The position numbers were made by a program, and so were the translations under genes. The notes under the pieces were generated by a model that ran no database searches, was not told where the DNA came from, and worked only from the letters and a program-made list of their open reading frames with translations. Positions 2,478-60,592 of a stretch of 64,000 nt of DNA are shown piece by piece. Positions within the stretch are counted from its first letter, which is position 1. Every line of letters begins with the position of its first letter. The stretch spans positions 88,073 to 152,072 of the forward strand of contig CALNYG010000015.1 in assembly GCA_942490825.1 (NCBI GenBank), written 5' to 3'. This DNA comes from Candidatus Moraniibacteriota bacterium (GTDB lineage: Bacteria; Patescibacteriota; Minisyncoccia; Moranbacterales; GCA-2747515).

Positions 2478-3188
2478 TTATTTAATTATATAAGAAAATT
2501 CATTATCAGATTCATTGCTTTCTTTAATAATATTAAGAGGATCTAGGATTATAGTAACTTTGTCGCCACTTTTTACACCAAATTTTATGGGCGTCCAAGG
2601 ATAGCCACTTTCACATTTAGCATTTTCACGACTTGGGTCTTTCAGTCCGCCAGCATATTTATCAGAAAAAATTGGTCCTAGGTATTCTTTATCTGTATAA
2701 ATTCTAGAATCTCCAGTGTAAGTCCAATCATAATTAACGGCGAAATCACCTATTGTTTTGCCACTGTTTTTAATTTTAGCAAAAACAAAAATAGTAGAAG
2801 TTTTATCACCACCTTTGTTAGTCATTAAACGAGTTTCTGTTTTTACATCTTCAACAAATAAGTTGGGCGGAAGATCACTGTCTTTTTCATCAACACTAAT
2901 TTTTTCTGGTGAAGGTCCTGTGTAACAAAAACTTTGTATCTCCGTACTTTTAATATATTCTTTTATCATATCTGAAAGACTTTCAGTGGCTTGTTGAGCT
3001 GCTGACTGAGTGGGTTGTTCTTGTACTTCAGGTGTTGGCTGAGTTGTTACAGATTGTTTAGTTGTTGACTGTTGTGTTTCTGGAATAGGTGCTACTGTTT
3101 GAATTTCACTGACTGATTGTTCATTATTACATCCAGTTAAAAAGACTGTTAATAGTAAAACTGAACTTAATATAATTACATTTTTCAT
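2478..3188 (-). CDS. hypothetical lipoprotein
   Basis: Signal peptide with lipobox (MKNVIILSSVLLLTVFLTGC), a Q/T/P-rich linker, and a C-terminal beta-rich domain. No family recognised. Confidence 0.6.
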   Translation of the reverse strand: MKNVIILSSVLLLTVFLTGCNNEQSVSEIQTVAPIPETQQSTTKQSVTTQPTPEVQEQPTQSAAQQATESLSDMIKEYIKSTEIQSFCYTGPSPEKISVDEKDSDLPPNLFVEDVKTETRLMTNKGGDKTSTIFVFAKIKNSGKTIGDFAVNYDWTYTGDSRIYTDKEYLGPIFSDKYAGGLKDPSRENAKCESGYPWTPIKFGVKSGDKVTIILDPLNIIKESNESDNEFSYIIK

Positions 3189-3217
3189 AAAATATTTGGG
3201 TTTAAAATTAAAAATTT

Positions 3218-3544
3218 TTATTTTCTAAAACAAGTCTTCAATTTCTCTTCAATCTCATTAAAAGGTTTATTCAAGATAGATTTATTAGCATAAACAATGG
3301 CATCGCAATTTTCAGGAAAAAGATCAATATTTTTTTTCAAAACCTCTCGTAATTTTCTTTTAATTTTATTTCGTTCAACAGCTTTCAAAGAAACTTTTTT
3401 AGAAACTACAACTGCAAAACGATTAAGTTCAAGATCATTTTTCAAAGCTTTAATCATAAAAAAATCATCATAAAAACTTTTTCCATTTCGAAAAATTTTA
3501 TTGAAATCTTTTATGCTAGTAACTCGATATTTTTTAGCAAACAT
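3218..3544 (-). CDS. rnpA: ribonuclease P protein component
   Basis: 108 aa and basic. FRNGKS... and VVVSKKVSLKAVERNKIKRKLRE match the conserved RnpA RNR-type region. Confidence 0.85.
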   Translation of the reverse strand: MFAKKYRVTSIKDFNKIFRNGKSFYDDFFMIKALKNDLELNRFAVVVSKKVSLKAVERNKIKRKLREVLKKNIDLFPENCDAIVYANKSILNKPFNEIEEKLKTCFRK

Positions 3545-3656
3545 TAAAAAGTATTTTTTTAAATTACCTTTTTATGTTACATAGTAAAACAAATTTGGTC
3601 AATGCGAATAGATTATATTTTTTTAAAAAGTATTCTTTAAACTCAAAGTATAGATT

Positions 3657-3974
3657 CCGGATAAATTATTTTCTATCTATAAAACGCGATAAATCGACGT
3701 TTCTACAAAAGAAAATATATTTTCCGGAATGATATGTCTGATGAATGATCTTTCTGTGGGGAATTTTTCACTTCATAAATTTATCTGAGATAAATTTATT
3801 ACGCCTGTCTGCCGACAAAGGCAGGTTCAGAATGACAGAAAAACTTATTGGGTGGATTGCGGTGTCTCTCCCTACGGTCATTTCTCGCAATTACGGTAAA
3901 TCTTTTGGAGTTTCGGAAAATGTTGAATGGTAAAAAGCCCGTGCGGCAAACCTGTCTTTTTGGCAGATAGGCAC
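3657..3974 (+). repeat. intergenic hairpin-repeat cluster R2
   Basis: 3657-3736 is module C, a long AT hairpin closed by TTCCGGA/TCCGGAA and followed by TGATA. 3761-3838 is module A with an extra nested GC hairpin (cctgtctgccgacaaaggcagg). 3936-3974 is the AGCCCGTGCGGC unit with a nested hairpin. Confidence 0.85.
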
Positions 3975-4283
3975 AGGAAATATTAAAACTTTTAGAATTA
4001 TTTTAGATTATTAAGTTCTCGCTACATTTAAGGAATAATCGCAACACTTAGATTATTTGCGATAGTATTGGCATTCATCATTAAAACACTCAGAATAAGA
4101 CATGTACTGTTTTTATTTATATTTTCATAAAAAATTACGAACAAAAATTTATTTATATTATTTTTTAGTTAAATACTTAACTTTTTAAATATATAGCTGT
4201 TGCAATTAATCATTGAACTCGGGCTCGAAAAATTTGACTAATACGCAATTTTTGAATACAATGTATAATATTGTGATAATATT

Positions 4284-4356
4284 GCACCGTTAGCTCAGTT
4301 GGTAGAGCAGTTGACTCTTAATCAAACGGTCGGGGGTTCAAATCCCTCACGGTGCA
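4284..4356 (+). tRNA. tRNA-Lys (anticodon CUU)
   Basis: 73-nt cloverleaf. Acceptor GCACCGT/ACGGTGC, D arm GCTC-AGTTGGT-AGAGC, anticodon loop CTCTTAA, T arm GGGGG-TTCAAAT-CCCTC. No encoded CCA. G-A mismatch at pair 27:43. Confidence 0.9.
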
Positions 4357-4388
4357 CAGGTTGAGGTCCTTTTTTGAGGATTTCTTTC

Positions 4389-4460
4389 GCTCCCATAGCT
4401 CAACGGATAGAGCAATAGCCTTCTAAGCTGGAGATCTAGGTTCGATTCCTAGTGGGGGTA
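4389..4460 (+). tRNA. tRNA-Arg (anticodon UCU)
   Basis: 72 nt. Acceptor GCTCCCA/TGGGGGT (two G-U pairs), D stem GCTC/GAGC, anticodon loop CTTCTAA, T arm CTAGG-TTCGATT-CCTAG. No encoded CCA. Confidence 0.85.
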
Positions 4461-4470
4461 CAAATATTAA

Positions 4471-4503
4471 AAAAACCACTACATTAATTTGAGTGGTTTT
4501 TTT
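4471..4503 (+). terminator. rho-independent terminator after the tRNA pair
   Basis: Stem AAACCACT/AGTGGTTT followed by a T run. Confidence 0.6.
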
Positions 4504-4541
4504 GTAAATTTTAAAATTGTAATTCTAAAAATGCTTTGAAT

Positions 4542-5762
4542 CTATTCTTCAGCTTTAGGGTAATCATTTGGTGAAGCATAGGAGCTTTTGAATACATCAT
4601 TAATCACAAGTTCTCTATTTTTGTTAAAGACTTTTTGGGTGAAATAAGTTTTCATTGATCCATCATCATTTTTTTCAGTTACAAATGGTCCTTCAACCTC
4701 CACTTTTCTTTTGTCACTTGTTCCATAGAATTTAAAAGCAAGATCATTAGTTTTTTCATCCATTTCAACTTGGACTAAAATATGTCCTGGTGTATTATTT
4801 ACAAATTTCAAATCAGGCTTTGGCAAGTAAATAGCTGCATCCATGCCTTGAGGGTCATAATAGTGAACAGGGTAAGCATGATTTCTTCTGGCAGTAATCG
4901 CTAGCCCACTGTAAATAGCTGCTCGAAATGTTGTTGTGGATACTTGGCAAATTCCACCACCAAATTCTTTTACGGTTTCACCTTTTTTGATAACTAATTC
5001 TTCTTCATAGCCAGTTTCTCCATCAACAGGTCCTAGTGTGTCGACAAAGGAAAATTCTTCTTCTGGTTTTATAACCATTCCATCAAATTTTTCAATTGCG
5101 GTTTTGATATTGTGAATGCGGGTTTTGGTAGATCCGTGAAAATTTGATTTTCCTTCGCCAATCAATTCGTTAATACCCAATTCTTTTAGATTGTCTGATC
5201 TTATCAAAGCTTTTTGTAAATTATAGGATAACTCAACCTGCTCTGGCAGCTTTGAACTGTTAATTATTTTATCAATTATTATTTCGATACTTTCTGGTAT
5301 GTTTAATTCTATTCCATCTAATTCTGCAGAAGTGATTTCTATTTTTTGCAATTTATCATTAAACTTAATTTTGGCATTTTTTGGTTCCTGACCTACTTTT
5401 TGAGATAAAGTTGCTAAATAAAAAGAAATATTTTCTTTGTTAACTACAGAATGGACATTTTTCTTTGTTGTATAACTATCTTGCAGGGAAGAGGTTAAAG
5501 TACAGATATTTTCTTTATTTGGACAGTAGTTTACATTTTCTATTTCTGATTTGTAGAAATTGTTTGTAGTTAAATATGGTTTAAAGTCTATCCATTCAGC
5601 AACGGTTGCATAAGATAGATTTTCCTTAGTATTATTTATTTTCAATATAATATTTGAATTGTTTGCTGAAGAAACTTTTGTATTTGCAAATAAAAAAATT
5701 AGTCCAATAAAAAATATTGAATTTATTTTTGATATGCTATTTTTTTTAAAATTTCTTTCCAT
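4542..5762 (-). CDS. VanW family protein
   Basis: N-terminal membrane anchor. The C-terminal GGGICQVSTTTFRAAIYSGL... motif is typical of the VanW domain. Confidence 0.75.
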   Translation of the reverse strand: MERNFKKNSISKINSIFFIGLIFLFANTKVSSANNSNIILKINNTKENLSYATVAEWIDFKPYLTTNNFYKSEIENVNYCPNKENICTLTSSLQDSYTTKKNVHSVVNKENISFYLATLSQKVGQEPKNAKIKFNDKLQKIEITSAELDGIELNIPESIEIIIDKIINSSKLPEQVELSYNLQKALIRSDNLKELGINELIGEGKSNFHGSTKTRIHNIKTAIEKFDGMVIKPEEEFSFVDTLGPVDGETGYEEELVIKKGETVKEFGGGICQVSTTTFRAAIYSGLAITARRNHAYPVHYYDPQGMDAAIYLPKPDLKFVNNTPGHILVQVEMDEKTNDLAFKFYGTSDKRKVEVEGPFVTEKNDDGSMKTYFTQKVFNKNRELVINDVFKSSYASPNDYPKAEE

Positions 5763-5792
5763 TTAATAAAATACTTGAGATGCTATAAAAAT

Positions 5793-5830
5793 AAACAAAG
5801 AGAGGACTAAAGTCAAGCCTCTCTTTGTTT
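5793..5830 (-). terminator. terminator downstream of hsp20
   Basis: 13-bp stem AAACAAAGAGAGG/CCTCTCTTTGTTT, with a U-rich tract on the minus-strand transcript. Confidence 0.65.
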
Positions 5831-5855
5831 TGATTTTTAAAATTTTGTATATTTT

Positions 5856-6404
5856 TTAGAATCCTCGAACTTGAATTTTTTTAGCAATTAAGGTGTCAGC
5901 TTTTGGTAATTTGATAGTTAAAATTCCATTCTTTAGAGAAGCATCAATTTTGTCAGTAACTACATCCATAGGTAGAACAATTGATCTGGAGAAAGGTCCC
6001 CAATAACACTCCTGATAATAATAACTATCTTCGTCAATGTGCTCTTCTTGCTTTCGCTCACCCTTTATAGTGATCATGTCGTTACTAATTGAAACATCAA
6101 CATCTTCAGGTTTTACTCCGGCGATGGTTGATTTTATAACAATACTAGTAGTTGTTTGGTAAACGTCAATTGTTAATTGTCCATCAGCCTCTCCATTGTC
6201 TTCATAGTCATCAATGTATTCTTCATTATTATTTTCAACAACAATATCAGAACTTTGCTCGGAGAAGTTTAAATCATCCTGAGGATAATTATCATCTGCA
6301 CTATAAACTGGTGTAGACGTAACAGGTTGTGCTGAATTTTCTTCTACTCCCTCTTGTTCAGAGCCAGTTATTCTATTTAAGAATGAAGATTTTTGTTTTT
6401 GCAT
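5856..6404 (-). CDS. Hsp20/alpha-crystallin family small heat-shock protein
   Basis: An acidic N-terminal extension precedes an alpha-crystallin domain (LTIDVYQT..., ITIKGERK..., GILTIKLPK). Confidence 0.85.
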   Translation of the reverse strand: MQKQKSSFLNRITGSEQEGVEENSAQPVTSTPVYSADDNYPQDDLNFSEQSSDIVVENNNEEYIDDYEDNGEADGQLTIDVYQTTTSIVIKSTIAGVKPEDVDVSISNDMITIKGERKQEEHIDEDSYYYQECYWGPFSRSIVLPMDVVTDKIDASLKNGILTIKLPKADTLIAKKIQVRGF

Positions 6405-10261: not shown

Positions 10262-10279
10262 AGCCCGTGCGGCGAGCAC
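10262..10279 (+). repeat. AGCCCGTGCGGCGAGCAC unit (copy 2 of 11)
   Basis: Exact core flanked by an A run and T6. On the minus strand it reads GUGCUCGCCGCACGGGCUUUU downstream of the 10346-11192 gene. Confidence 0.8.
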
Positions 10280-10293
10280 TTTTTTGATAAAAT

Positions 10294-10323
10294 AAAAAGA
10301 CGAGCTTTGAACTCGTCTTTTTT
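10294..10323 (-). terminator. terminator downstream of the secreted repeat protein
   Basis: Stem AGACGAG/CTCGTCT flanked by A and T runs. Confidence 0.6.
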
Positions 10324-10397: not shown

Positions 10398-11192
10398 TTA
10401 CCATCTTTTTGTAGTCATAAATTCACCAACGGGAATTTTCTGGTCATTTATGTAAGTATAAATTTTAACTTTTTTTGATTTTCTTATTTTCTCACCATCT
10501 TCATCACGTAATCTAATATACAGATTAAATCTTTGCATTGGATTTGCAACATCTCCACTTTTATACTCGAATTTATATTTACCAGAAATTACGTCAGTCA
10601 GTTTAAGTGTATTAGTGGTATCTATTCTTTCATAGGCAGCGTAAAACCAATCGCTATCATCAATTTTAGCTTTAACTTTGATACGTGGTTTATTTTTCTT
10701 TTTACTTAAAGAAGCATCTTCATCAACATCTATTTTATATACCATTCCAGGAATAGTATTTTCTAAGGAAAGTTCGCCGTCGCTATCAGTTTCATAAGTT
10801 CCTGCTAAAATTTTATCATCACCAGGAACAATAGTTGGTAGAGATGCTGCATCGATATACGCATAAACCTCTACATCAACTTTTTCATCAAACTTTCGAC
10901 CTTTCTCATCGTACATTTGAGCTCTAATATCTATTATTTGAGGTGTTTGTACGTCATCATTATCAACTTCTAATTTATATTTTCCAGGCAACATTTTTTT
11001 TAATTTCAATGTTCCGTAGGGAGTCGTATGTTTTTTTAAAGCTTTGAACCATTCACCTCCTTGTTTAGCATAAACCTTAACTTCTATTCCATCAGCATTT
11101 ACTGAATCAGCATTCGCAATTTTTGTTAGTAAAAATGTTGGTAAAACACTAATACAAAAAATTATAGCCCCTGCAAAAATTTTCTTTCTCAT
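10398..11192 (-). CDS. secreted protein with four tandem beta-sandwich-like repeats; C-terminus apparently frameshifted
   Basis: Signal peptide. Recurring ...LPGKYKLEVDNDD, IPGMVYKIDVDED and ISGKYKFEYKSGD modules. The end of the fourth module (DGKLYLPNVMPGEYKLDVK*) is read in another frame, down to a stop at 10346-10348. Confidence 0.7.
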   Translation of the reverse strand: MRKKIFAGAIIFCISVLPTFLLTKIANADSVNADGIEVKVYAKQGGEWFKALKKHTTPYGTLKLKKMLPGKYKLEVDNDDVQTPQIIDIRAQMYDEKGRKFDEKVDVEVYAYIDAASLPTIVPGDDKILAGTYETDSDGELSLENTIPGMVYKIDVDEDASLSKKKNKPRIKVKAKIDDSDWFYAAYERIDTTNTLKLTDVISGKYKFEYKSGDVANPMQRFNLYIRLRDEDGEKIRKSKKVKIYTYINDQKIPVGEFMTTKRW

Positions 11193-21427: not shown

Positions 21428-21530
21428 TTTTTTATATTTTTTGTGAATTTAAAAAATTATCCGGAATCTAGAAAGCTTTAAGATTGCTAATAAAGTTTTA
21501 AGTTCAATTTTTATCTGAAATTCTGAATAA

Positions 21531-21732
21531 ATTATTTTTTCACTGCGTTACAAAATAATTTTTCAGGATGACATAGTCAGGGAGTTTTGTGAATTTCTGT
21601 AGGGGATTCTTCACTTCTTTATTTTTTCTAACGAAAAAATAAATCCGTTCAGAATGACATGTAAATTAGATGACAGGAATGTTCTATAATTTCGAAAAAT
21701 GATAAATAGTGAAAAGCCCGCGCGGCGAGCGC
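21531..21732 (+). repeat. intergenic hairpin-repeat cluster R3
   Basis: Module B at 21531-21574 (ctgaataaattattt...aaataatttttcaggatgacat). Module A at 21605-21659. AGCCCGCGCGGCGAGCGC unit at 21715-21732, 49 nt upstream of comEC. Confidence 0.85.
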
Positions 21733-24446: not shown

Positions 24447-24560
24447 CTTTTTCTTACTGCGGTAAGATTAAGCTACTTATATTCTATAACATTTAAATTA
24501 TTTGGCAAGGGGGTGGCTGTGGATAACTTTTTTAATTTAGAGTTTGGTGATTGTACGAGA

Positions 24561-24851
24561 TCCTGAATAAATTATTTTTCCATTGCATTACAAAATAATT
24601 TTTCAGGATGACATAGGCGGGGAGATTTGTGATTTTATTTGGGGGATTCTTCACTGCGTAATTTTGTCTGACGACAAAACTACTTCGTTCAGAATGACAG
24701 GTAAATTTAATGTTATCAAAAAAATATAAAAATTATATTGTAGGGGCTGTGCCTTGTGCCTGCCCATGCGATGAACTTTAAATTTTACGCAAAGGGCGAC
24801 CACAAGGGATCGCCCCTACAAATTATGTATCATAGCCCGTGCGGCAGGCAC
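24561..24851 (+). repeat. intergenic hairpin-repeat cluster R4
   Basis: Module B at 24561-24614. Module A at 24645-24700. GTAG/CTAC-bounded long hairpin at 24738-24820 (tgtaggggc...gcccctaca). AGCCCGTGCGGCAGGCAC at 24834-24851. Confidence 0.85.
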
Positions 24852-24871: not shown

Positions 24872-24900
24872 TTAGACAAAACGGTTTTTTATCGTATACT
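24872..24900 (+). promoter_or_regulatory. candidate promoter of pepN
   Basis: TTAGAC, a 17-nt spacer, then TATACT. It lies 21 nt downstream of the AGCCCGTGCGGC unit. Confidence 0.35.
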
Positions 24901-24965: not shown

Positions 24966-27404
24966 TTGAAAGATTATTGTCCGTTGAATTTTGATTTGGA
25001 TTCAGTTTATTTAGAATTTGATTTGGCGAAAGACACAACTCAGGTTTTAAGTAAAATGGATTTTTCTAATTTTAAAGATAAACAATTGAAACTTTATGGA
25101 GAAGATTTGGAGTTGAAAGAAGTTTTATTGAACGATGAAAAAGTTGATTTTGAAAAAGTTGATGGTGCGATTATTTTGAAAGATTTGCCAGAAAAATTTT
25201 CGCTTTCAATAAAAACAATTATTCATCCGGCGAAAAATACAGCGTTATCAGGCTTGTATCAGTCGGGTGATATTTTAGTTACGCAGAATGAACCACAAGG
25301 ATTTCGGCGAATGACTTATTTTACAGATCGTCCAGACGTGATGACAAAATATACCACAAAATTAATTGGAGATAAAAAAGAATTTCCAGTGATGCTTTCA
25401 AATGGAAATGCGATTGGAAGTGGCGAATTGGAAAATGGAAAACATTTTGCGATTTGGGAGGATCCTTTTAAAAAGCCTTCTTATCTTTTTGCGGTGGCGG
25501 CGGGTGAGTTTGATTTGTTGCGAGATAAGTTTGTTACGATGAGTGGTCGGGAAATTGATCTGAGGATTTATACTGATCCGGGAGAATCTCACAAAGCTAA
25601 ATTTGCGATGGAGTCGTTGAAAAATTCTATGAAGTGGGATGAAGAAAAATTTGGTTTGGAATATGATTTGAATATGTATATTATTGTGGCGGTGAGTTCT
25701 TTTAATGCCGCTGGGATGGAAAATAAGGGATTAAATGTTTTTAATAGTCGTTTTGTTTTTGCTGATCCAGAAAAATCTACCGATGTTGATTTTATGAATG
25801 TAGAAAAGGTAATTGCTCATGAATATTGTCATAATTGGACAGGTAATCGTGTTACTTGTCGTGATTGGTTTCAACTTACTTTAAAGGAAGGATTGGTAGT
25901 TTTTCGTGAACAATTATTTAGTGGAGATGTGCGTGATCAAACTATTCAAAGAATTTCTGATGTGGAGTTTTTAAAATCTTATCAATTTTCTGAGGATGCT
26001 TCACCTAATGCTTATCCGATTAAACCGAAAGAGTATTTAGAAATAAGTAATTTTTACACTCCGACGGTTTATGAAAAGGGTGCGGAAGTGATTCGTATGA
26101 TGTACACTTTATTGGGGAAAGAAGGTTTTCGTAAGGGGATGGATTTGTATTTTGAGCGACATGATGGTGATGCGGTTACGACGGAAGATTTTGTTTCGGC
26201 GATGGAGGATGCGAATGATTTTGATTTATCTGATTTTGTTCATTGGTATGATGACGCGGGAACTCCAAAATTAAAAGTTGAGGAAAATTTTGAAAATGGT
26301 AAATATTCTTTGCGAATCAGTAAAGATAAGAAAGCGATGTTACCTTTAAATTATGCTTTATATAATAGAAAAAATGGTGAAGTTTTAAAATCTGAAACTT
26401 TGCATTTAGTTGATGAAATTAAAATTGAAGTTGATGCGGATGAAAAGCCTGTTTTATCTTTGAATCAAAATTTTTCTGCTCCAGTCGTTCATGATTATAA
26501 ACTTTCTTTGAAAGACAGTTTGTTTTTAGTGGAATATGATGAGGATTATTATAATCGTTATGATGCGGTACAAAGTGTTTATTTGGAAGATATTATAAAT
26601 GGAAATGTTGAGAATAGTATTGAAGCTTTTGGTAAAGTTTTGAATTCTGATGTGAATGATTATTTGAAAGCTTACATGTTGAAATTGCCGAATTATCCGA
26701 CAATTTTTGGTCGTTATGAAAAAGATTTGCCAATTGAAAATATTTATCAGCAAATTGATAAAATGAAAAAAGCGATTCGAGATAAATTTAAAAAGGAATT
26801 GCGTGAAATCGTTGATCGGGCGAGCGGGACTGAAGCGACTGATTTATCACAAGAATCAATGGGAAGGCGAGCGATTAAAAATATTGTATTAAGTTATTTA
26901 GATGATAAAGATTTAGCTAAAGAAGATTATGCTAAATCTTTAACAATGACAGAGAAAATAGTTGATTTGCAAATAGCAAAAAATGATGAGTTGTTTGATG
27001 ATTATCTTGAAAAGCATAGAGATGATAAAGATATGGTGGTTAAATATTTTCAGATTATTTCTTTGAATAGTGAAGAGAATCCGATTGGCAAAATTAAAGA
27101 GTTATTGAAATCTGATCTATTTGATTACAAAGTGCCTAATTTAATTCGGGGATTGATCGGTGTTTTTGCGATGAATTATCGATTCTTTTTTACGGAAGAG
27201 GGTGTGGATTTTTTCGTTGAAGAATTGAAAAAGATTGATAAAATGAATCCAGAAATGGGATCACGACTTTGTAGTTCAATTAATCTGTATCCTAAATTGG
27301 AGGAAAAAACTCAGGAAATGGTTTATAATAAACTGAAAGGTTTTTATAAAAGTGATGATATTTCAAAAAATGCTTATGAAATTTTAAATAAGATTTTTGG
27401 ATAA
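24966..27404 (+). CDS. pepN: aminopeptidase N (M1 family)
   Basis: GAMEN-type motif AAGMENKG. Zinc site HEYCHNWTGNRVTCRDWFQLTLKEG. The TTG start comes from the ORF track and the start is uncertain (see findings). Confidence 0.9.
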   Translation: MKDYCPLNFDLDSVYLEFDLAKDTTQVLSKMDFSNFKDKQLKLYGEDLELKEVLLNDEKVDFEKVDGAIILKDLPEKFSLSIKTIIHPAKNTALSGLYQSGDILVTQNEPQGFRRMTYFTDRPDVMTKYTTKLIGDKKEFPVMLSNGNAIGSGELENGKHFAIWEDPFKKPSYLFAVAAGEFDLLRDKFVTMSGREIDLRIYTDPGESHKAKFAMESLKNSMKWDEEKFGLEYDLNMYIIVAVSSFNAAGMENKGLNVFNSRFVFADPEKSTDVDFMNVEKVIAHEYCHNWTGNRVTCRDWFQLTLKEGLVVFREQLFSGDVRDQTIQRISDVEFLKSYQFSEDASPNAYPIKPKEYLEISNFYTPTVYEKGAEVIRMMYTLLGKEGFRKGMDLYFERHDGDAVTTEDFVSAMEDANDFDLSDFVHWYDDAGTPKLKVEENFENGKYSLRISKDKKAMLPLNYALYNRKNGEVLKSETLHLVDEIKIEVDADEKPVLSLNQNFSAPVVHDYKLSLKDSLFLVEYDEDYYNRYDAVQSVYLEDIINGNVENSIEAFGKVLNSDVNDYLKAYMLKLPNYPTIFGRYEKDLPIENIYQQIDKMKKAIRDKFKKELREIVDRASGTEATDLSQESMGRRAIKNIVLSYLDDKDLAKEDYAKSLTMTEKIVDLQIAKNDELFDDYLEKHRDDKDMVVKYFQIISLNSEENPIGKIKELLKSDLFDYKVPNLIRGLIGVFAMNYRFFFTEEGVDFFVEELKKIDKMNPEMGSRLCSSINLYPKLEEKTQEMVYNKLKGFYKSDDISKNAYEILNKIFG

Positions 27405-27415
27405 AAATATTTTTT

Positions 27416-27583
27416 GTGCCTGTCTGCCGAACAGGCAGGCTCGCCGCACGGGCTTTTTGGATTCAAGATTTTGAATCCTTGTAAATATTCGTTGCAATAC
27501 GTTTTTGATTATTTCCTTCCGAGATCCTGAATAAATTATTTAATTTTTTTTACAAAAAATGAAATAATTTTTCAGGATGACAT
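27416..27583. repeat. intergenic hairpin-repeat cluster R5
   Basis: 27416-27454 is an inverted AGCCCGTGCGGCGAGC unit with a nested hairpin, 12 nt after the pepN stop and followed by T5. 27459-27478 is the hairpin GGATTCAA/TTGAATCC. 27525-27583 is module B. Confidence 0.85.
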
Positions 27584-30549: not shown

Positions 30550-30773
30550 TTTTTAAAGCTTTTATAAAATGAGTAAAAAAGAATTAATTGAACAATATAA
30601 TAATGAAAAATTAAATTTTTTGGTTAGTAATTTTATAGGATTACATAAAGTTTAGTTATCTAATTTTATTATTAATTTTTTTTATATAGTATAAAGATTC
30701 TAAAAAACTAAAATCTAATCTAAATTAAACTGAAAATATTTTATTATTCAGTTTTTTTAATTTCATGTATCAC

Positions 30774-30791
30774 AGCCCGTGCGGCGAGCAC
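30774..30791 (+). repeat. AGCCCGTGCGGCGAGCAC unit (copy 6)
   Basis: Exact core preceded by tgtatcac. It lies 18 nt upstream of the -35 of the A2M promoter. Confidence 0.8.
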
Positions 30792-30808
30792 AGAAATTCA
30801 GAAGACTT

Positions 30809-30838
30809 TTGTTTTAAATACTTGTTCAATGCTATAAT
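30809..30838 (+). promoter_or_regulatory. promoter of the alpha-2-macroglobulin gene
   Basis: TTGTTT (30809-30814), an 18-nt spacer, then extended -10 TGCTATAAT (30830-30838). Confidence 0.45.
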
Positions 30839-30867
30839 AAAAATATTAATAATTTAAAAATAAAACT

Positions 30868-33800
30868 ATGAAAAAAGCCTTTTTGCTTTTGGGAATGATT
30901 ACTTTATTTTCTTGTTTTCCAATGTTTCGATCAGTGTTTCAACAAGAGGCTAAAGCAGAAGATAAGCCAGAGCCAAGTTTATACTTGACTGGTAAAAATA
31001 TATATCAGCGAAATGGTTTGATTTCCTTTACATCACAAGAATCTGCAGTAGTTGAAGTTGAAGGTAGAGATCTTGAGGAAAGTGAGATTACGATAGATGT
31101 TTATGATGCAGATATGCAGGATGTTTTAAGATTTTTAACTTATGATGATGAGGATAAGCAAATTAATAGTGAGGTTTCTTTGGAGGGTAGAGATGAAATT
31201 GCTACTTTTGTAACGAAATGGAAAGATAGCTTTGAATTGCCTTTTGGAGATAAGAATGGCGTTTTGCTAATACATGCTAAAGCTGGTGAATTGGAAATCT
31301 ATTCATTTGCAATCCGTTCTAATGTTGGGGCTGTTGTTACAGAAGTTCAAGATGAACTCTTAATTTGGTCTCAAAATTTTGATACTAAAAGAAAAGAGAA
31401 TAATCAAAATGTTGTTTTTTATAGTTTAAAAAATAATGTCTTAAAGCAAAAAAGTGTTACTACAAACAGTGAGGGAATTGCAACAACTCCAATTTCTAGT
31501 CAGTATGATATAGCAATTGTTGGTGATGGGGATGACTTAGCTTTTGTCCCAATTGGTATGCGACAATTAGGTTATGGAGGTAATTATTCATTTGCAAATC
31601 AAAGTCCAAATAGTAAATTTTTTATTTTTACTGATAGATCTTTATATAAACCAGGAGATAAAATTTATTTTAAATCAATTTTACGTGATGATAATGATGT
31701 AAATTTTGTTATTCCATCAGGAAATTGGCGAGCGAAAATTGTTTATGGCTGGGGTGATAGTGAAGAGATTATTAGAGAGCAAAATTTTACTGTTAATGAA
31801 TATGGAACTTTTGATGGAGAATTTAAATTACCTGAAAATGTAAATACAGGTGAATATAGATTTGTTGTTGAAAAAATAGATGAGGAGCAGAAGAGTAGTG
31901 ATTATTGGTGGGATGAGGGTTATGGTGAGGTTTATTTTCAAGTAGAACATTACCGTAAGCCAGAATACACATTGGACATGGAGGTAGATCAAACCCAACT
32001 TATAAATGGTAAGAATATTACTTTTAATATTGAGGGTGAATATTTTTCAGGACAGCCTTTAAATGGAGTGGAAGTTGAGTACACTGTTAGAGAAAGTGAT
32101 TTTTACAATAGTACTTTTTATTATCCACAACAAATAGATAATTTTAATTACAGACGTTATTATGGTAAAGAAATTGAAAAAGGAAAGGCAGTTTTAGATG
32201 CTGATGGTTCAGCTCAAGTTTCTGTTAATACAGATATTAAAGATGGGGAAAATAAAATTTATTCTATTGAATTAAGTTATGCATCGGAAGCTGGTGGTGA
32301 AAATGTGAGGGAACAAAAAAATGTTTTAGTTTTTGCCGGAGAATATAATATTTATCGAGAAAGTCATAAATATAGTTTTCATGTGGATGAGGAAATTAAA
32401 TTAGATTTAATTTTAAAAGAAAACAAAGAAAAAGCAGATTTAGCAGGTAAAAAGTTAACAGTTGCTCCAAAGCGAATTTGGTGGGAAAAAGAGTTGGTTG
32501 ATGATTTGAGAGACAAGTCACGCTATAATTACAAACGTAAAGAAGAGATTCTTGAAAATTTTGAAATTATTACAGATTCTCAAGATAGGGCGGTATTACG
32601 TTTTAATCCACAAAAATCTGGATCGTATGAGTTTAAAGTTAAGAGTATGGATTCGCAAGATAATAGTATTGAGAAGACTTTTAGTGTCTGGGTTTCTGAT
32701 AAGTATTATTCTTATAGTGGACAGGGTTCAAAAGAATTAAATGTGATTCTTGATAAAAATAGTTATGAACCAGGAGAAAATGTTACAGCTAGTATCTCTT
32801 CAGAAATGCCAGACAGAGATATTTTATTTTCAGTGGGAAGAAATTTTATTCACGAATATAAAGTTGTTTCTATGAATGGAAATTCTGTTAATGTTGATTT
32901 TCAGGTATCGGATGATTATATGCCAAGTGCTAAAGTGGAAGCAGTTAGTTTCTCAAGTGACAAAATTAATACAAGCTCTACAAGTCTTCAGGTTTCAGCC
33001 CAGAAGAAAAGATTGGATATTTCAATAGAAACTGATAAAGATATTTATAGTGCTGGTGAGGAAGTGAAGGCAACAGTTAAAGTTACAGATCAAAATGGAG
33101 AACCGCAAAAATCTGAAGTGGCTTTATGGGCTGTGGATAAAGCTTTATTTGAATTATCGGATCCTTCTGGACAAAAGTCTTTTGATTCTTTTTGGAATTA
33201 TCGATATGGAAATGTTAGTTTCACACATTCATTGCGAGGTCTGTCAATTAATGCTGCTGAGAAGGGAGGTTGTTTTAAAGCAGGGTCTCAAATATTAATG
33301 TCAGATAGTTCGACTAAAAATATTGAAGAGGTTAAAGTTGGAGATTTTGTTTTGACCAGAGAAAATGAAAATAGTGAAAACTTAGTTAAGGAAAAAGTTA
33401 TAAAAACTCATAATGTCGAAGTTGATGGATATTTTGTTATTAATAATAATTTAAATGTTACAGAAAATCACGTTGTTCGAGTAAATGATGAATGGAGACG
33501 TGCTGATCAAATTAAGATTGGAAATTATTTAATTGATCGAGATGGTAAAAATGTGACAGTTGAATCGATTGAATGGAGAAAAGAAAAAACGATGGTCTAT
33601 AATTTAGAGATTGAAGATAAACATTCCTATTTTGTGAATGGTGTATGGGTTCATAATGGAAAAAGTGGAGGTGCTGGACGGTCTGTTTTTAAAGATGTAG
33701 CTTATTGGAATCCGAAGATTGTAACTGATAAAAATGGTGAAGCAGAAGTTTCTTTTAAATTATCTGATGATTTAACAACCTGGGCATTTTCTGCAGTTGG

Positions 33801-35856
33801 TGTTACTAAAGATACAAAGGTTGGAAATGCTAATCATGAAATTAAAGTTTCGCAACCTGTTATTTTACGTCCGTATTTGCCAAATATTTTTTACACAGAA
33901 GATGAGGTGAATGTTTCAGTGGAGGCTCAAAATTTTTCTGGAAAGAAAAGGAATTTTCAAGCGAAAATCGAATTTGACGGTGGAGAAGTAAAAAATAATT
34001 TGCAGGAAATTGAAATTGAAGATGGAGAAACGAAAGAAATTATTTTTACAATTTATCCCAAAGAAGAAAAAGATGCTCAATTAACTTTTTCTTTAAATTC
34101 AAAAGATGAGGAATCTGTTGGTGATAAAATTACGAAAAAAGTTTCAATTGAGAAGTTTGGATTTTTAGAAAAAAGTTCTTCAGTGCATAAAGCTAATGAA
34201 AATATAAATTTGCAAATTAATGAAGATGCTTTTAATGATAAAACTGAAGTGAATTTAGAAGTTTCAGCGACTTTATTAGGTTCTTTGCCGAGTGCAATTG
34301 ATTATTTGATAGATTATCCTTATGGTTGTATTGAACAAACAACTAGTCGTTTTAGAGCGGTTTTGGCGGTGAAGCAAAATCCAGAAATTTTTTACAAAGC
34401 TAATCAAGAAAAGGATATTGATGCGATTTTAAATGAAGGAATAAAACGATTGAGTAAAATGCAAAATTCTGATGGTGGCTGGAGCTGGTGGAGCAGTAAA
34501 AAATCATCACCGTTTATTTCTATTTATGTGGCGGAAAGTTTACTAGAGGCAAAAGAGGTTGGGGTTGAGGTTGATGAAGAAATGATTAATTCTGCTGAAA
34601 AATATTTTTCTGAGTATTACTATTCTGAATTTAAACGACTTGAATCAGATGTAGACAAAAAAGAAAGATTAATTGTTGTAAGATATGGAAATTCACTTTT
34701 TGGAAAAAATAATGGAATGGTGCAGCTTTATTCTAATTTAGATCCAGATATGATCGCTTTGGGTGTGATGGCAAATATTCGAAATGGTTTCACTAATCCG
34801 AATGAAAATGGTTTAAATATTTTAAAAAATAAACTTCAACAGGAGGGTAATTACAAATATTGGTTAAGTGCTGATTATAATCGCTTTGGTTCAGCAGATG
34901 CTTCAACGGCATTGGGATTGAGGGCTTTTTTGATGGCTGATGTTGAAAAAGATGAGATTGATAGTATTGTTAAATATTTGACGAATTCGAGGAAAAGACA
35001 ATATTGGAATAGCACTTTTGCAACCTCGAAAGTTATTGGTGCTTTGATGGATTATGCTGATAAGCATGAATATAATTTAAAAGTTAATAAAAATATTCAG
35101 ATTTACAATGATGGAGAGAACATTTTAAATGAAACTTTAAGTTTGAAAAATCATTCTGTAAATATTCCTGTTTCTGTTAATGATATTAAAAAAGAAGGTT
35201 CTAATTTGAAAGTTCAGAGCAATGATGACGTATATATTACTTTGATCAAGAAAGAATTTAGAACAGATAGAAATGCTCAGGTTGTAAGTAATGGCATTTC
35301 AATTGAGAGAAATTATATAAATAAAAATGAAACAGGTGAGATTGGTAAGGGAGATATTGTAGATGTTGAGGTGAAAGTGAGTGGTTTAAATAAAGATAAC
35401 GCATATTTAGTAGTGGAAGATAAGTTGCCAGCCGGTTTAATTCCTGTAAATGAAAATTTGAAAAATGTTTCTTCTGAAAGTGACGCTTATATAAATTATG
35501 ACTATGCCCAGCGGGAATATACTAAAAATGGTGTTATTCTTCATAGAGAGAATATTAACTCAGGTTCATTAATTTTCAATTATAAAGCTAAAGCGATTGC
35601 TAGCGGAGTTTTTATTGATCCGCCAACGGTGGCTGAGATGATGTACAATCCTGATATTTATGCTCGAACTGGTGTACAGACTTTAGAAATTAGTTTGGAA
35701 TCCCAGAAAGAAAGTTTGGAAGATTTCAATGCTGAAATGAAATCTTGGTTTAAAAAAATATTTGGATATAGTCGAGAGATTTTGGTTATCTTTGTTTCGT
35801 TTGTTGTGATTACTTACGGAATTATTGTGTTGGTTAGAGATAAATTTAAGGTTTAA
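30868..35856 (+). CDS. bacterial alpha-2-macroglobulin family protein with a thioester motif and an inserted Hint domain
   Basis: 1662 aa. Signal peptide with lipobox-like LFSC. MG-domain body. Post-bait signature FKDVAYWNPKIVTDKNGEAEVSFKLSDDLTTW. Thioester GCIEQ (CIEQ at 34327-34338). C-terminal TM helix. Confidence 0.85.
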   Translation: MKKAFLLLGMITLFSCFPMFRSVFQQEAKAEDKPEPSLYLTGKNIYQRNGLISFTSQESAVVEVEGRDLEESEITIDVYDADMQDVLRFLTYDDEDKQINSEVSLEGRDEIATFVTKWKDSFELPFGDKNGVLLIHAKAGELEIYSFAIRSNVGAVVTEVQDELLIWSQNFDTKRKENNQNVVFYSLKNNVLKQKSVTTNSEGIATTPISSQYDIAIVGDGDDLAFVPIGMRQLGYGGNYSFANQSPNSKFFIFTDRSLYKPGDKIYFKSILRDDNDVNFVIPSGNWRAKIVYGWGDSEEIIREQNFTVNEYGTFDGEFKLPENVNTGEYRFVVEKIDEEQKSSDYWWDEGYGEVYFQVEHYRKPEYTLDMEVDQTQLINGKNITFNIEGEYFSGQPLNGVEVEYTVRESDFYNSTFYYPQQIDNFNYRRYYGKEIEKGKAVLDADGSAQVSVNTDIKDGENKIYSIELSYASEAGGENVREQKNVLVFAGEYNIYRESHKYSFHVDEEIKLDLILKENKEKADLAGKKLTVAPKRIWWEKELVDDLRDKSRYNYKRKEEILENFEIITDSQDRAVLRFNPQKSGSYEFKVKSMDSQDNSIEKTFSVWVSDKYYSYSGQGSKELNVILDKNSYEPGENVTASISSEMPDRDILFSVGRNFIHEYKVVSMNGNSVNVDFQVSDDYMPSAKVEAVSFSSDKINTSSTSLQVSAQKKRLDISIETDKDIYSAGEEVKATVKVTDQNGEPQKSEVALWAVDKALFELSDPSGQKSFDSFWNYRYGNVSFTHSLRGLSINAAEKGGCFKAGSQILMSDSSTKNIEEVKVGDFVLTRENENSENLVKEKVIKTHNVEVDGYFVINNNLNVTENHVVRVNDEWRRADQIKIGNYLIDRDGKNVTVESIEWRKEKTMVYNLEIEDKHSYFVNGVWVHNGKSGGAGRSVFKDVAYWNPKIVTDKNGEAEVSFKLSDDLTTWAFSAVGVTKDTKVGNANHEIKVSQPVILRPYLPNIFYTEDEVNVSVEAQNFSGKKRNFQAKIEFDGGEVKNNLQEIEIEDGETKEIIFTIYPKEEKDAQLTFSLNSKDEESVGDKITKKVSIEKFGFLEKSSSVHKANENINLQINEDAFNDKTEVNLEVSATLLGSLPSAIDYLIDYPYGCIEQTTSRFRAVLAVKQNPEIFYKANQEKDIDAILNEGIKRLSKMQNSDGGWSWWSSKKSSPFISIYVAESLLEAKEVGVEVDEEMINSAEKYFSEYYYSEFKRLESDVDKKERLIVVRYGNSLFGKNNGMVQLYSNLDPDMIALGVMANIRNGFTNPNENGLNILKNKLQQEGNYKYWLSADYNRFGSADASTALGLRAFLMADVEKDEIDSIVKYLTNSRKRQYWNSTFATSKVIGALMDYADKHEYNLKVNKNIQIYNDGENILNETLSLKNHSVNIPVSVNDIKKEGSNLKVQSNDDVYITLIKKEFRTDRNAQVVSNGISIERNYINKNETGEIGKGDIVDVEVKVSGLNKDNAYLVVEDKLPAGLIPVNENLKNVSSESDAYINYDYAQREYTKNGVILHRENINSGSLIFNYKAKAIASGVFIDPPTVAEMMYNPDIYARTGVQTLEISLESQKESLEDFNAEMKSWFKKIFGYSREILVIFVSFVVITYGIIVLVRDKFKV
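33271..33657 (+). other. Hint / bacterial intein-like (BIL) domain, 129 aa, in-frame inside the A2M gene
   Basis: Block A CFKAGSQILMSD...VGDFVL, block B VTENH (TxxH), block F VYNLEIEDKHSYFVNG, block G VWVHN. The residue after HN is Gly. Confidence 0.75.
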
Positions 35857-38700: not shown

Positions 38701-38733
38701 AAAGGAATTGGTCTTGTACTAATTCCTTTTTTT
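38701..38733 (+). terminator. terminator after the SPFH gene
   Basis: Stem AAAGGAATT/AATTCCTTT followed by a T run. Confidence 0.6.
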
Positions 38734-38745
38734 CGTTTGGTATTC

Positions 38746-38870
38746 CGTAGGGAACGCACATGTGCGTTCCCTACGATGGAATGGTGAATGTGATAAAATT
38801 GAAGTTTTATGTGGAGGTTTGTCAGTGGCAAACGCTTACTATTATGTATCATAGCCCGTGCGGCGAGCAC
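38746..38870 (+). repeat. intergenic hairpin-repeat cluster R6
   Basis: 38746-38775 is the perfect 30-nt palindrome CGTAGGGAACGCACATGTGCGTTCCCTACG. attatgtatcat plus AGCCCGTGCGGCGAGCAC lies at 38853-38870. Confidence 0.85.
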
Positions 38871-38893: not shown

Positions 38894-38922
38894 TCGACAA
38901 TAAGGTTTTCGCATGGTATTAT
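38894..38922 (+). promoter_or_regulatory. candidate promoter of the 39007 gene
   Basis: TCGACA, a 17-nt spacer, then TGGTATTAT. It starts 24 nt after the AGCCCGTGCGGC unit. Confidence 0.4.
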
Positions 38923-40472: not shown

Positions 40473-40951
40473 GTCATTTCGACTGAAGCGTAGCGGAATG
40501 GAGAAATCTCAAAGTTTACAGACAATCATAAAGTTTTGAGATTTCTCGACTTCGCTATCGCTACACTCGAGATGACAATATAAAGGTTTTTTAAGAGGTC
40601 TGATAAATAAAGTTTTTTGAAAAACTCATCATTATGTTATTTTTGAAATTTAAAATAATGATGTGTTTTGTTTTTATATTTTAAAATTAGTTTTCTTGTC
40701 ATTCTGAACGAAATAATTTTTATAAAATTCTTAATGTTTTTGGTAAAAATTATGTAGTGAAGAATCTTAGTAAGTTTTTCTGACACTTTAGTTTTAAAGT
40801 TTCATGATTCTCTGTGGGGGATTCTTCACTTCATAAATTTATCTGCGATAAATTTATTACGTTCAGAATGACAGGAAGTTTATAGAGTTTCGAAAAATGT
40901 TGAATGGTGAAAAGCCCGTGCGGCGAGCCTGCCTGTTCGGCAGACAGGCAC
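40473..40951. repeat. intergenic hairpin-repeat cluster R7
   Basis: 40473-40577 is a large imperfect hairpin (gtcatttcgactgaagcgtagcggaatggagaaatctc ... gagatttctcgacttcgctatcgctacactcgagatgac). Module A occurs inverted at 40697-40766 and forward at 40820-40874. The AGCCCGTGCGGCGAGC unit with nested hairpin is at 40913-40951, upstream of gyrA. Confidence 0.85.
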
Positions 40952-45760: not shown

Positions 45761-46115
45761 GAAACGTTTCGGAATCAGTGGTCTTCGACACACTAATTCC
45801 GGTAGGATATTTAAAGACATGACATTTCGGAAAATATATTTTCTTTTGTAAAAACGTCGATTTATCGCGTTTTATAGATAGAAAATTATTTATCCGGAAA
45901 CTATGCTTAAAGTTTTCTTTAATTTTAAAGTATAGATACTAGAAAGGTCGCTACGCTCTTGAACAAATTATATCTTCCAGCATGACAGGTCTGGAAGGAT
46001 TATGAATTTTGTAGGGGCAGTGCCTTTTGCCTGCTCATGTGATGAACGAAAAGTCAGTAGAAATGAATTGCAATTCATTTCTACAATTATGTATCATAGC
46101 CCGTGCGGCGAGCAC
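45761..46115. repeat. intergenic hairpin-repeat cluster R8
   Basis: 45761-45801 is GAAACGTT plus a GC hairpin. 45818-45897 is module C in inverted orientation. 45976-46000 is the hairpin CTTCCAG/CTGGAAG. The tgtaggggcag arm starts at 46010. 46057-46084 is the perfect 28-nt palindrome GTAGAAATGAATTGCAATTCATTTCTAC. AGCCCGTGCGGCGAGCAC lies at 46098-46115. Confidence 0.85.
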
Positions 46116-46144: not shown

Positions 46145-46172
46145 TTGATTTGTTTGGTGAGCGTGTTAGAAT
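46145..46172 (+). promoter_or_regulatory. candidate promoter of the small ORF and mnmA
   Basis: TTGATT, a 16-nt spacer, then TGTTAGAAT. It starts 30 nt after the AGCCCGTGCGGC unit. Confidence 0.4.
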
Positions 46173-46202
46173 AAAAATATTATAAATTAACTATTTTTTG
46201 CG

Positions 46203-46364
46203 ATGAATAAAATATCAAATTGGTTTAGAAAATTTTTTACGAGCAGAACTTTAAAAGTTATTATTATTAAATTTTGTATTTATACTGTAATTTATTTTGT
46301 TATCTTATATTTTTTATTTGATATATTTTGGGATGAATCTTTATTTGATGTAATTTCTAAATAG
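46203..46364 (+). CDS. candidate 53-aa small membrane protein
   Basis: MNKISNWFRKFFTSRTLKVIIIKFCIYTVIYFVILYFLFDIFW... contains one TM helix. Its stop is 2 nt before the mnmA ATG, suggesting translational coupling. It is below the ORF-track size cutoff. Confidence 0.4.
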   Translation: MNKISNWFRKFFTSRTLKVIIIKFCIYTVIYFVILYFLFDIFWDESLFDVISK

Positions 46365-46366
46365 TC

Positions 46367-51195: not shown

Positions 51196-51585
51196 ATGAA
51201 AGATTATTTAAAAAATTTAGTAAATTTTTTTATTAAAAATGAGAAAAAAATAGTTCTGGGAATGGGAATTGTTTTGATAATTGTGATAAGTTTTACTTTT
51301 GGAATTATGAAAGGGAAAGGTATTACCCAAGATCCATTGATTATCTCAATAGCAGAAGTTCCGCCGGTTGTTATCAATTCTAATGACTCTGTAAGTATTG
51401 AGGAAAAAGCTGAAATTGGAGAAGGTCTGACAACATGTGTTTATGTGGGAAGTAAAAATGGGAGTAAATATTATCCTCCGACTTGCTCATATGCCAAAAA
51501 GATTAATCCAGAAAATTTACGATGTTTTTCTTCGGATGAAGATGCAATCGAAAAAGGATATTCTAAAACAACTTCATGTGATTGA
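51196..51585 (+). CDS. hypothetical membrane-anchored protein with a Cys-containing C-terminal motif
   Basis: One TM helix. The C-terminal YYPPTCSYAKKINPENLRCFSSDEDAIEKGYSKTTSC is a small Cys motif. Confidence 0.5.
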   Translation: MKDYLKNLVNFFIKNEKKIVLGMGIVLIIVISFTFGIMKGKGITQDPLIISIAEVPPVVINSNDSVSIEEKAEIGEGLTTCVYVGSKNGSKYYPPTCSYAKKINPENLRCFSSDEDAIEKGYSKTTSCD

Positions 51586-51620: not shown

Positions 51621-51680
51621 GTGCCTGTCTGCCCTGTCTGTCGACAGGCAGGCAACATAGGCAGTCTAGTCGCACGGGCT
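51621..51680 (-). repeat. inverted AGCCCGTGCG unit with two nested GC hairpins (copy 10)
   Basis: gtgcctgtctgccctgtctgtcgacaggcaggcaacataggcagtctagtcgcacgggct followed by tttt, 36 nt after the stop of the 51196-51585 gene. This is a terminator position. Confidence 0.75.
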
Positions 51681-60451: not shown

Positions 60452-60592
60452 GGCGGAACCTGCCTGTTCGGCAAATAAATGTATCGAAAAGTGAAGGTAT
60501 TTAGGAAAATTAAATTTGAAGCTTGTTAATAAACTTTCATAATATAACTTAAAGTTTTATGTTTCTAGATCCCTGCCTACGCGAGGATGACA
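60452..60592 (+). repeat. intergenic hairpin-repeat cluster R10 (degenerate)
   Basis: 60452-60476 (ggcggaacctgcctgttcggcaaat) is a fragment of the nested AGCCCG unit. 60546-60592 (aacttaaagttttatgtttctagatccctgcctacgcgaggatgaca) matches the right half of the 1883-1980 and 2127-2225 repeat. Confidence 0.7.

Follow-up and report, generated by a model that had tools for sequence, protein, structure and literature searches.

A 17-bp GC-rich motif, GCCCGTGCGGCGAGCAC (hereafter U), recurs between the genes of a 64-kb stretch of Candidatus Moraniibacteriota DNA (the window, i.e., all 64,000 nucleotides of the stretch analysed), with the same side always turned toward the nearer gene, and in related genomes it keeps its place while the DNA abutting its other side differs. 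We tentatively interpret U as a constant, sequence-specific boundary module of an intergenic mosaic that resembles those built from repetitive extragenic palindromes (REPs) and bacterial interspersed mosaic elements (BIMEs), occurring in a narrow clade and probably serving as a recognition or target site for a protein. Our analysis covers the 64 kb of the source genome and ~100 kb from relatives. The window has a GC content of 30 %, and the nearest relatives of its GyrA, PepN and ValRS proteins are Candidatus Moranbacteria/Moraniibacteriota, members of the candidate phyla radiation (CPR, Patescibacteria). The loci of close relatives, which we denote by L numbers, represent three lineages: lineage 1 (L121, L137; GyrA 96 %, PepN 88 %), lineage 2 (L122-L124, L138; GyrA 94 %, PepN 83 %) and lineage 3 (L125, L139, L156; GyrA 92 %, PepN 83 %, ValRS 85 %). 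Orthologous comparisons of U among them are not phylogenetically independent.

The initial annotation had listed U as a repeat, and the repeat is real, with ten copies and a truncated fragment at 60452, the annotated coordinates being correct to within a leading A. A search with an 18-mer allowing ≤3 mismatches recovered 8 sites in the window compared with 0 in 100 shuffled sequences, and the core GCCCGTGCGGC with ≤1 mismatch marks 10 sites (8 forward, 2 reverse); among the GC-rich 10-, 12- and 14-mers in the window, words derived from U also recur most often. Copies are spaced 2-15 kb apart, at a density of ~1 copy per 6 kb, and none was found in coding DNA over the 64 kb. Intergenic DNA makes up only 17.8 % of the window, yet all 10 copies are located in it, in regions of 209-989 nt; by simple arithmetic from that fraction, the probability of this is ~3e-8. 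The further claim that the copies always adjoin promoters or stop codons stood in part. They are all intergenic and polar, and the two inverted copies do follow shortly after stop codons as had been proposed (Table 1), but overall the association is no closer than that of any intergenic element: the copies are distributed over region types (1 convergent, 1 divergent, 8 co-directional) in line with the window's intergenic make-up, and promoter-like matches are as frequent in shuffled sequences as near U.

The orientation of U follows a single rule. In 10/10 window copies the GCAC side points toward the nearer gene (binomial p = 0.002) and the GCCCG side toward the longer, repeat-filled part of the region, and this holds for the forward copies at promoters, for the two inverted copies after stop codons and for the inverted copy by the terminator of gene 10398-11192. 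The recognised repeat modules are without exception on the 5' (GCCCG) side of U, and U stands at the gene-proximal end of each mosaic of repeats. In 9/10 distinct classes of 5' partner, the sequence next to U is an A run (background 0.11, p = 2e-8). No region holds a second U or a partner terminal repeat, and target duplication is not visible.

All 20 U copies found in the close relatives have a window counterpart at the orthologous site, and these sites number eight (upstream of gyrA, mnmA, the A2M-like gene, the Lactamase_B_3 gene, pepN, comEC and valS, and downstream of pepN). Orientation is kept as well: the valS-site copy is inverted, like its window counterpart, and so is the copy after pepN, which a hairpin interrupts (L156). 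The relatives' copies show 0 or 1 difference from the canonical 17-mer, this hairpin-bearing L156 copy excepted. Identity between orthologous U copies is 181/187 (96.8 %), compared with 83.9 % over the 60 nt on the 3' side (Fisher test, U versus 3' flank, p = 6e-7) and 51 % over the 60 nt on the 5' side, the latter being about random for AT-rich DNA. Loop and tail bases of U are as strongly conserved as its stem bases. On the 3' side, U and promoter are inherited as one conserved block, with the -35/-10 pairs at 24873, 38894 and 46145 kept in the orthologues.

Homology is lost at the first base of U, at the GCCCG edge, often exactly. At the mnmA site, 59/60 positions 3' of U match between the window and L121 and the 5' sequences are unrelated, while L125 has a third, unrelated 5' flank. 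The slot upstream of pepN is bounded on the left by a conserved repeat, module A, and on the right by U, and what it contains depends on the genome: a GTAG...CTAC cassette of ~100 nt (window), a GTAG palindrome of 30 nt (L137) or a third sequence (L156). The 5' partner of U is also lineage-dependent upstream of comEC and Lactamase_B_3.

Beyond the close relatives, no U was found upstream of gyrA or elsewhere in the fetched loci of two distant relatives (GyrA 85 % and 78 %). A genome-collection scan with the 15-mer GCCCGTGCGGCGAGC, an ill-suited pattern, returned 120 loci exclusively in GC-rich genomes (lowest GC 48 %), and its sole repeated match is a different GC-rich repeat. A metagenome scan of the JGI collection for AT-flanked U gave 8 chance matches on contigs of 51-62 % GC, so the U-bearing clade must be rare or absent there. 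In viral scans the 17-mer occurred only within coding Cys-Pro-Cys-Gly-Glu-His motifs of unrelated, mostly GC-rich viral contigs. Since U is absent from the distant relatives and the databases returned only chance matches, it is, on the collections sampled, confined to a narrow Candidatus Moranbacteria clade, within which its positions are stable.

Hairpin H and the repeats on the outer side of U

Some U copies are interrupted by a 21-nt hairpin, CCTGCCTGTTCGGCAGACAGG (hereafter H; U+H for the composite). Upstream of gyrA, the window and L121 differ almost only by a 21-nt insert between G14 and C15 of U, the flanks matching at 58/60 positions on each side, and the insert is also absent from L122 and L125. 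H at gyrA is a precise insertion in the window's lineage, and this clean presence/absence comparison bears out the nested insertion that the initial annotation had proposed. The position of H within U is identical in all H-bearing copies (4/10 in the window, as well as L156), with at most a 1-nt ambiguous overlap at the junctions. Also confirmed were the annotated hairpins between GCGAG and CAC, including a double form in which H lies inside the loop of another H, the H copy inside module A, which is missing from the module A paralogue at 40811-40873, and the two alternative prefixes preceding U (Table 1). H folds better than shuffled sequence, most clearly on the reverse strand (z = -3.4), and most H copies have one non-Watson-Crick stem position, C.A on one strand becoming G.T on the other. 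In the U copies with an older, diverged H (3937, 51679) the loop region of U has decayed. Viral scans with H gave 0 matches.

The DNA on the outer side of U is rich in other repeats. Module A has conserved ends, GGGGATTCTTCAC ... CGTTCAGAATGACAGG, flanking a central stem-loop; the stem sequence varies among copies yet always pairs, and the module therefore looks like a case of structure-level conservation. The inverted module A pair upstream of gyrA resembles a REPIN-like doublet. Further hairpin families, which together occupy most of the long intergenic regions, all end in ..(G)ATGACA and some start with TGTCAT..., which may represent terminal inverted repeats. Perfect or near-perfect GTAG...CTAC palindromes are found at 38743-38770, 46057-46084 and 24740-24819, upstream of Lactamase_B_3 in L125 and at about 78-107 in L137; several stand directly 5' of U, and GTAG is the tag that defines RAYT-associated REPs.

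A sequence-specific, oriented module with exact-position exchange beside it implies recognition by a putative protein. U would act through its sequence and not as a self-sufficient hairpin, most likely as the site that a DNA-binding or DNA-cutting protein, encoded in another part of the genome, recognises or targets. Selection would keep it at the outer edge of gene units, its orthologous places fixed, with the GCAC side toward the gene unit (promoter or stop side) and the GCCCG side toward repeat-filled, fast-changing DNA. Small palindromic cassettes, several of them GTAG...CTAC-tagged, would be swapped flush with the GCCCG edge, and H, an imperfect palindrome, inserts between G14 and C15. 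Any effect on transcription would be secondary, with U+H, or U between A and T runs, forming terminator-like hairpins; U+H probably terminates pepN and gene 51196-51585.

Several observations weigh against the reading of U as a boundary module with a target-site role. U carries neither a GTAG nor a CGTC tag and is a poor palindrome, and so is no textbook REP. Gain and loss of U itself are rare, so that a role as target site depends on the events beside it; the empty-looking Lactamase_B_3 site of L125 does not show a clean gap of 17 nt and is therefore not counted as proof of U movement. No candidate for the protein emerged, and no transposase, RAYT or recombinase genes were found among the window open reading frames (ORFs) in Pfam scans or among the Pfam tags of the fetched close-relative loci. 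In addition, a compensatory change of T6-A16 to C-G at 21716, together with one wobble (L156), hints at hairpin formation, for which a purely double-stranded site would have no need. One might go further and speculate that a dedicated putative protein binds U as a polar landing pad, or boundary site, and channels ultra-small mobile hairpins to the outer side of gene units, GTAG palindromes to the GCCCG edge and H to G14^C15, such that the promoters and terminators of a streamlined CPR genome stay intact. We regard this extension as distinctly doubtful.

Likeness to known repeat systems

By analogy, the whole arrangement appears most like REP/BIME mosaics and the Neisseria intergenic mosaic elements (NIMEs). 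REP/BIME mosaics, with their REPs, REPINs and RAYT transposases, are described from Proteobacteria (PMC3733652, PMC3116915), and REPs bear an unpaired GTAG or CGTC tetranucleotide at one end (PMC3733652). The U mosaic shares with them short, GC-rich, extragenic repeats in multiple copies, clustered with other motifs, standing beside GTAG-tagged palindromes and acting as insertion targets, and REPs too have been proposed as terminators or mRNA stabilisers and as protein-binding sites. It differs in that U is only 17 nt long, forms no convincing palindrome, lacks the tag, occurs singly and never as a doublet and is strictly polar, in that no RAYT gene was found among the window ORFs or fetched relative loci, and in that the host is a CPR bacterium of 30 % GC. 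Taken feature by feature, a 20-40 bp imperfect palindrome with a stable stem-loop is found in H (21 nt, z down to -3.4) and not in U; the GTAG/CGTC tag is absent from both and stands on neighbouring palindromes, e.g., those at 38743-38770 and 46057-46084 and the pepN cassettes of the window and L137; and many extragenic copies in mosaics are present, 10 in 64 kb, each at a mosaic end.

In Neisseria NIMEs, RS blocks are bounded by 20-bp dRS3 repeats. As with U, variable short intergenic blocks have at their borders a constant short repeat, a target of recombination or insertion that is specific to a group of species; in contrast, dRS3 is an inverted repeat on both sides of the block, whereas U occurs once per region and on the gene-proximal side only. 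H invites a separate comparison with the small dispersed repeats of heterocystous cyanobacteria, which Elhai et al. in 2008 are said to have described as palindromes of ~21-27 nt nesting in repeats and in each other. H is likewise palindromic, of similar size, nested and present or absent between related genomes, and a mobilising enzyme is known for neither; however, the sequences are unrelated, the phylum is another one, and H prefers one position of U (G14/C15). A very small mobile palindrome, as generally defined, describes H only, which at gyrA is absent from three relatives. The non-Watson-Crick position kept in H is reminiscent of the hairpins of IS200/IS605 ends and integron attC sites, which are generally known to be read single-stranded, and the cassettes similarly abut a fixed flank without visible duplication. 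Unlike in those systems, no Y1/HUH transposase or integrase gene was found within the Pfam scope given above, the cassettes contain no ORF, and the element has only a tenth to a hundredth of their size.

Several other candidates fitted poorly or were rejected. A miniature inverted-repeat transposable element (MITE) does not fit, U being without terminal inverted repeats or target-site duplication and H being itself a palindrome with ≤1-nt junction overlap. A transcription-factor operator or regulon is at odds with spacings of 17-29 or >100 nt, both orientations, two 3'-end copies and unrelated genes. TIGR-Tas systems, which occur in CPR bacteria, consist of tandem, regularly spaced units beside a Nop-domain Tas gene (PMC12045711); U copies are spread over distances of 2-15 kb, and Pfam scans of the window revealed no Nop-domain protein. 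A connection with the replication origin or parS was dismissed, as the window contains no GC-skew switch (its + strand is the leading strand throughout), no parS-like site and no excess of DnaA boxes. A full-text literature search returned nothing relevant on comparable repeats or uptake sequences in CPR bacteria.

Folding, transcription and rival explanations

The initial annotation had offered three ideas for U, namely a terminator or insulator, a protein-binding site centred near -60 to -70 and the terminal module of a composite mobile element, each of which is partly supported and none established. A serious rival, above all for U+H, is that U works as an RNA hairpin, a bidirectional intrinsic terminator or insulator that shields the gene unit from transcription starting in the mosaic or in adjoining genes and ends outgoing transcripts, although for U in general we consider this unlikely. 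Like Rho-independent terminators, most U copies combine an A run, a GC-rich element and a T-rich run. Inverted U+H is the first hairpin past the stops of pepN and of gene 51196-51585, followed by a run of uridines, and after pepN in L137 an ordinary terminator stands in its place. A terminator consensus scan flags, among the 10 U copies, 21730-21716 (-), 27437-27455 (+) and 40930-40950 (+), two of which rely on H or on G.U pairing. The reverse strand converts the C.A mismatches of U and H to G.U pairs, the compensatory change and the wobble mentioned above fall in the GTGC/GCAC stem, and the polarity is compatible with a directional block. However, bare U forms a stem of only 4 bp (GUGC/GCAC), or of 5 bp with a G.U pair, at -5.7 to -6 kcal/mol, and shuffled sequence folds just as well (z = -0.2 and -0.4 as RNA, about 0 as DNA). 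The ordinary terminators of this genome, in contrast, have unique, AT-rich stems of 11-15 bp set between A and T runs, and it is structure rather than sequence that is conserved in such terminators. Two of them, with 12-13 bp stems, adjoin U copies (38701-38729, 10294-10322). The equal conservation of loop, tail and stem also argues against a hairpin, the copies at 30775 and 3937 lack a T run and the prefix-1 copies an A run, and the T-rich tracts after U may be UP-like promoter parts. Covariation in U, assessed over two alternative stems with few variants, is not significant, 154/500 shuffles doing as well. The only workable-looking terminators are the U+H composites (-16 to -21 kcal/mol) and the 21716 variant (-8.8 to -9.4 kcal/mol). 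The annotated terminator role is plausible for inverted U+H and poorly matched by bare U. An Rfam search passed only two tRNAs at the curated score and gave nothing credible at U even at E up to 5, its sole overlap with U being a far sub-threshold match to an unrelated sRNA family (27389-27454).

U might instead be the terminal module of selfish composite mobile elements derived from REPs, MITEs or IS200/IS605, devoid of host function and uniform owing to recent or repeated transposition, which we find rather improbable. Its multiple copies in one clade, missing from the more distant relatives sampled, its constant place at the end of repeat mosaics beside GTAG-tagged palindromes, the presence/absence differences at the Lactamase_B_3 site (L125) and downstream of pepN (L137, L138) and the demonstrably insertional H that it carries would all agree with such an origin. 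Yet eight sites are common to the lineages while their 5' partners differ, and an old dead end should decay like its flanks (84 %), whereas U stays at 97 %. Moreover, neither a second U or partner end nor a target duplication is seen in any region, the window contains no transposase gene, and the L125 site lacks a clean gap. An upstream promoter element, i.e., a global transcription factor site at about -55 to -75 of housekeeping operons, is very unlikely in our view. Seven of the ten copies face the downstream gene, U and promoter are inherited together, the GTGC-N5-GCAC half-sites are symmetric, and conservation at the level of sequence favours the annotated protein site in general; but its geometry is not fixed, the end of U lying 17, 21, 23 or 29 nt from the four readable -35 boxes and U being inverted and 70 to >100 nt away at valS and 51795. 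Two copies are at gene 3' ends, one of these in a promoterless convergent region, and the genes beside U are functionally unrelated.

Neisseria and Haemophilus uptake sequences are often located in terminators, and DNA-uptake machinery of the type IV pilus/ComEC type is often noted in CPR genomes. That U serves natural transformation as a DNA uptake sequence whose uniformity is maintained by uptake bias nevertheless seems extremely unlikely to us. U is the most over-represented GC-rich word locally, in the window, forms a clade-specific 'dialect' conserved above its flanks and coexists in the window with a type IV pilus set and ComEC; however, the low density and the lack of coding copies, the strict gene-ward polarity and the exact-edge rearrangements would be unexpected for uptake signals, 17 invariant bases are far above known uptake-signal needs, and the literature search offered no link.

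Features, neighbouring genes and significance

Table 1. Copies of U and H in the window, with neighbouring repeat families. Strand refers to the orientation of the element; L numbers denote loci of close relatives.
Feature	Coordinates	Strand	Description	Surroundings and orthologues
U with diverged H	3937-3974	+	GCCCGTGCGGCAAA (3937-3950) + CCTGTCTTTTTGGCAGATAGG (3951-3971) + CAC	between rnpA (-) and tRNA-Lys (+), behind module A and prefix 2
Canonical U	10263-10279	+	14 nt from ordinary terminator (10294-10322) of minus-strand gene 10398-11192	inverted relative to downstream valS; orthologous copy in L139
U variant GCCCGCGCGGCGAGCGC	21716-21732	+	T6C plus A16G, GTGC/GCAC pairing kept	48 nt upstream of comEC; orthologous canonical copy in L138
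U variant GCCCGTGCGGCAGGCAC	24835-24851	+	upstream of pepN promoter TAGACA-16-TATACT (24873-24900)	orthologues in L137, L156; 5'-side cassette different in all three genomes
Inverted U+H	27416-27453	-	H at 27419-27439; + strand terminator-like	12 nt past pepN stop (27404); L156 orthologue is U+H with an extra nested piece; absent from L137, L138
Canonical U, prefix 1	30775-30791	+		76 nt upstream of A2M-like gene; orthologues in L122, L125, L137
Canonical U, prefix 1	38854-38870	+	upstream of Lactamase_B_3 promoter TCGACA-17-TATTAT (38894-38922)	orthologue in L122, absent from L125; ordinary terminator of upstream gene at 38701-38729
U+H upstream of gyrA	40914-40951	+	H at 40928-40948	orthologous U without H in L121, L122, L125
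Canonical U, prefix 1	46099-46115	+	upstream of promoter TTGATT-16-TAGAAT (46145-46172)	small ORF and mnmA downstream; orthologues in L121, L125, each with unrelated 5' flank
Inverted diverged U (GCCCGTGCGACTAGA..CAC)	51621-51679	-	outer H at 51624-51664, second H at 51633-51652 in its loop	36 nt past stop (51585) of gene 51196-51585
Truncated U+H relic	60452-60473	+	GGCGGAA + CCTGCCTGTTCGGCA	
H copy, opposite orientation	3804-3825	-	between ..ATTACG and TTCAGAATGACA	inside module A
Module A, forward	2330-2393, 3753-3837, 21596-21659, 24640-24699, 40811-40873			
Module A, inverted	40697-40770			
Other hairpin repeat families	21517-21573, 24557-24613, 27521-27582; 40475-40578; 1924-1980, 2169-2225, 60536-60592			
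Other hairpin repeat families, inverted	3660-3735, 45830-45900			

The genes of the window are housekeeping and cell-surface genes: rnpA, two tRNAs, valS, a type IV pilus cluster, nrdR, comEC, pepN, a gene for a giant A2M-like protein, gyrA, dus, mnmA and rml genes. The segment 12587-23229 encodes PilM and PilO, to which synteny with L138 adds two T2SSE ATPases, T2SSF and a pilin; nrdR and comEC come next. A conserved small ORF lies between the U-linked promoter and mnmA (window 46190-46366; L121 7329-7496, 55 aa in L121). The A2M-like protein (1662 aa, window 30868-35856) has orthologues at 2012-7054 of L122 and 307-5313 of L125 that carry Hint/intein-type Pfam tags, and may therefore hold an intein. 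The upstream neighbour of the U-A2M block is different in all four lineages: in L137 (5874-10321), genes for a DUF2079 protein and an AAA_21 ATPase (~4 kb) separate a 157-aa gene from the block, these are missing from the window (30550-30867), and in L156 (6020-7529) DUF2079 is seen before the contig end. L140 encodes a 1175-aa ValRS relative (2674-6201, P0192) with a Ser_hydrolase domain inside or fused; L139 carries this domain as a stand-alone gene immediately 3' of valS.

CPR bacteria are mostly uncultivated, their genomes are tiny, and to our knowledge almost nothing is known about their non-coding DNA. The present locus shows that a REP/BIME-like mosaic containing a single 17-bp module of strict conservation and strict orientation can exist between CPR genes, and that palindromes of 21-30 nt are inserted or exchanged in it at points defined to the single nucleotide. 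If a protein reads U, this would provide a simple case for the movement of very small DNA elements and for the shielding of gene units in a minimal genome, and if U were indeed a landing pad, H would be among the smallest site-specific mobile DNAs known. Even if U is only a weak terminator in a repeat family, it would still supply an annotation rule, since U marks the outer edge of the promoter or terminator region.

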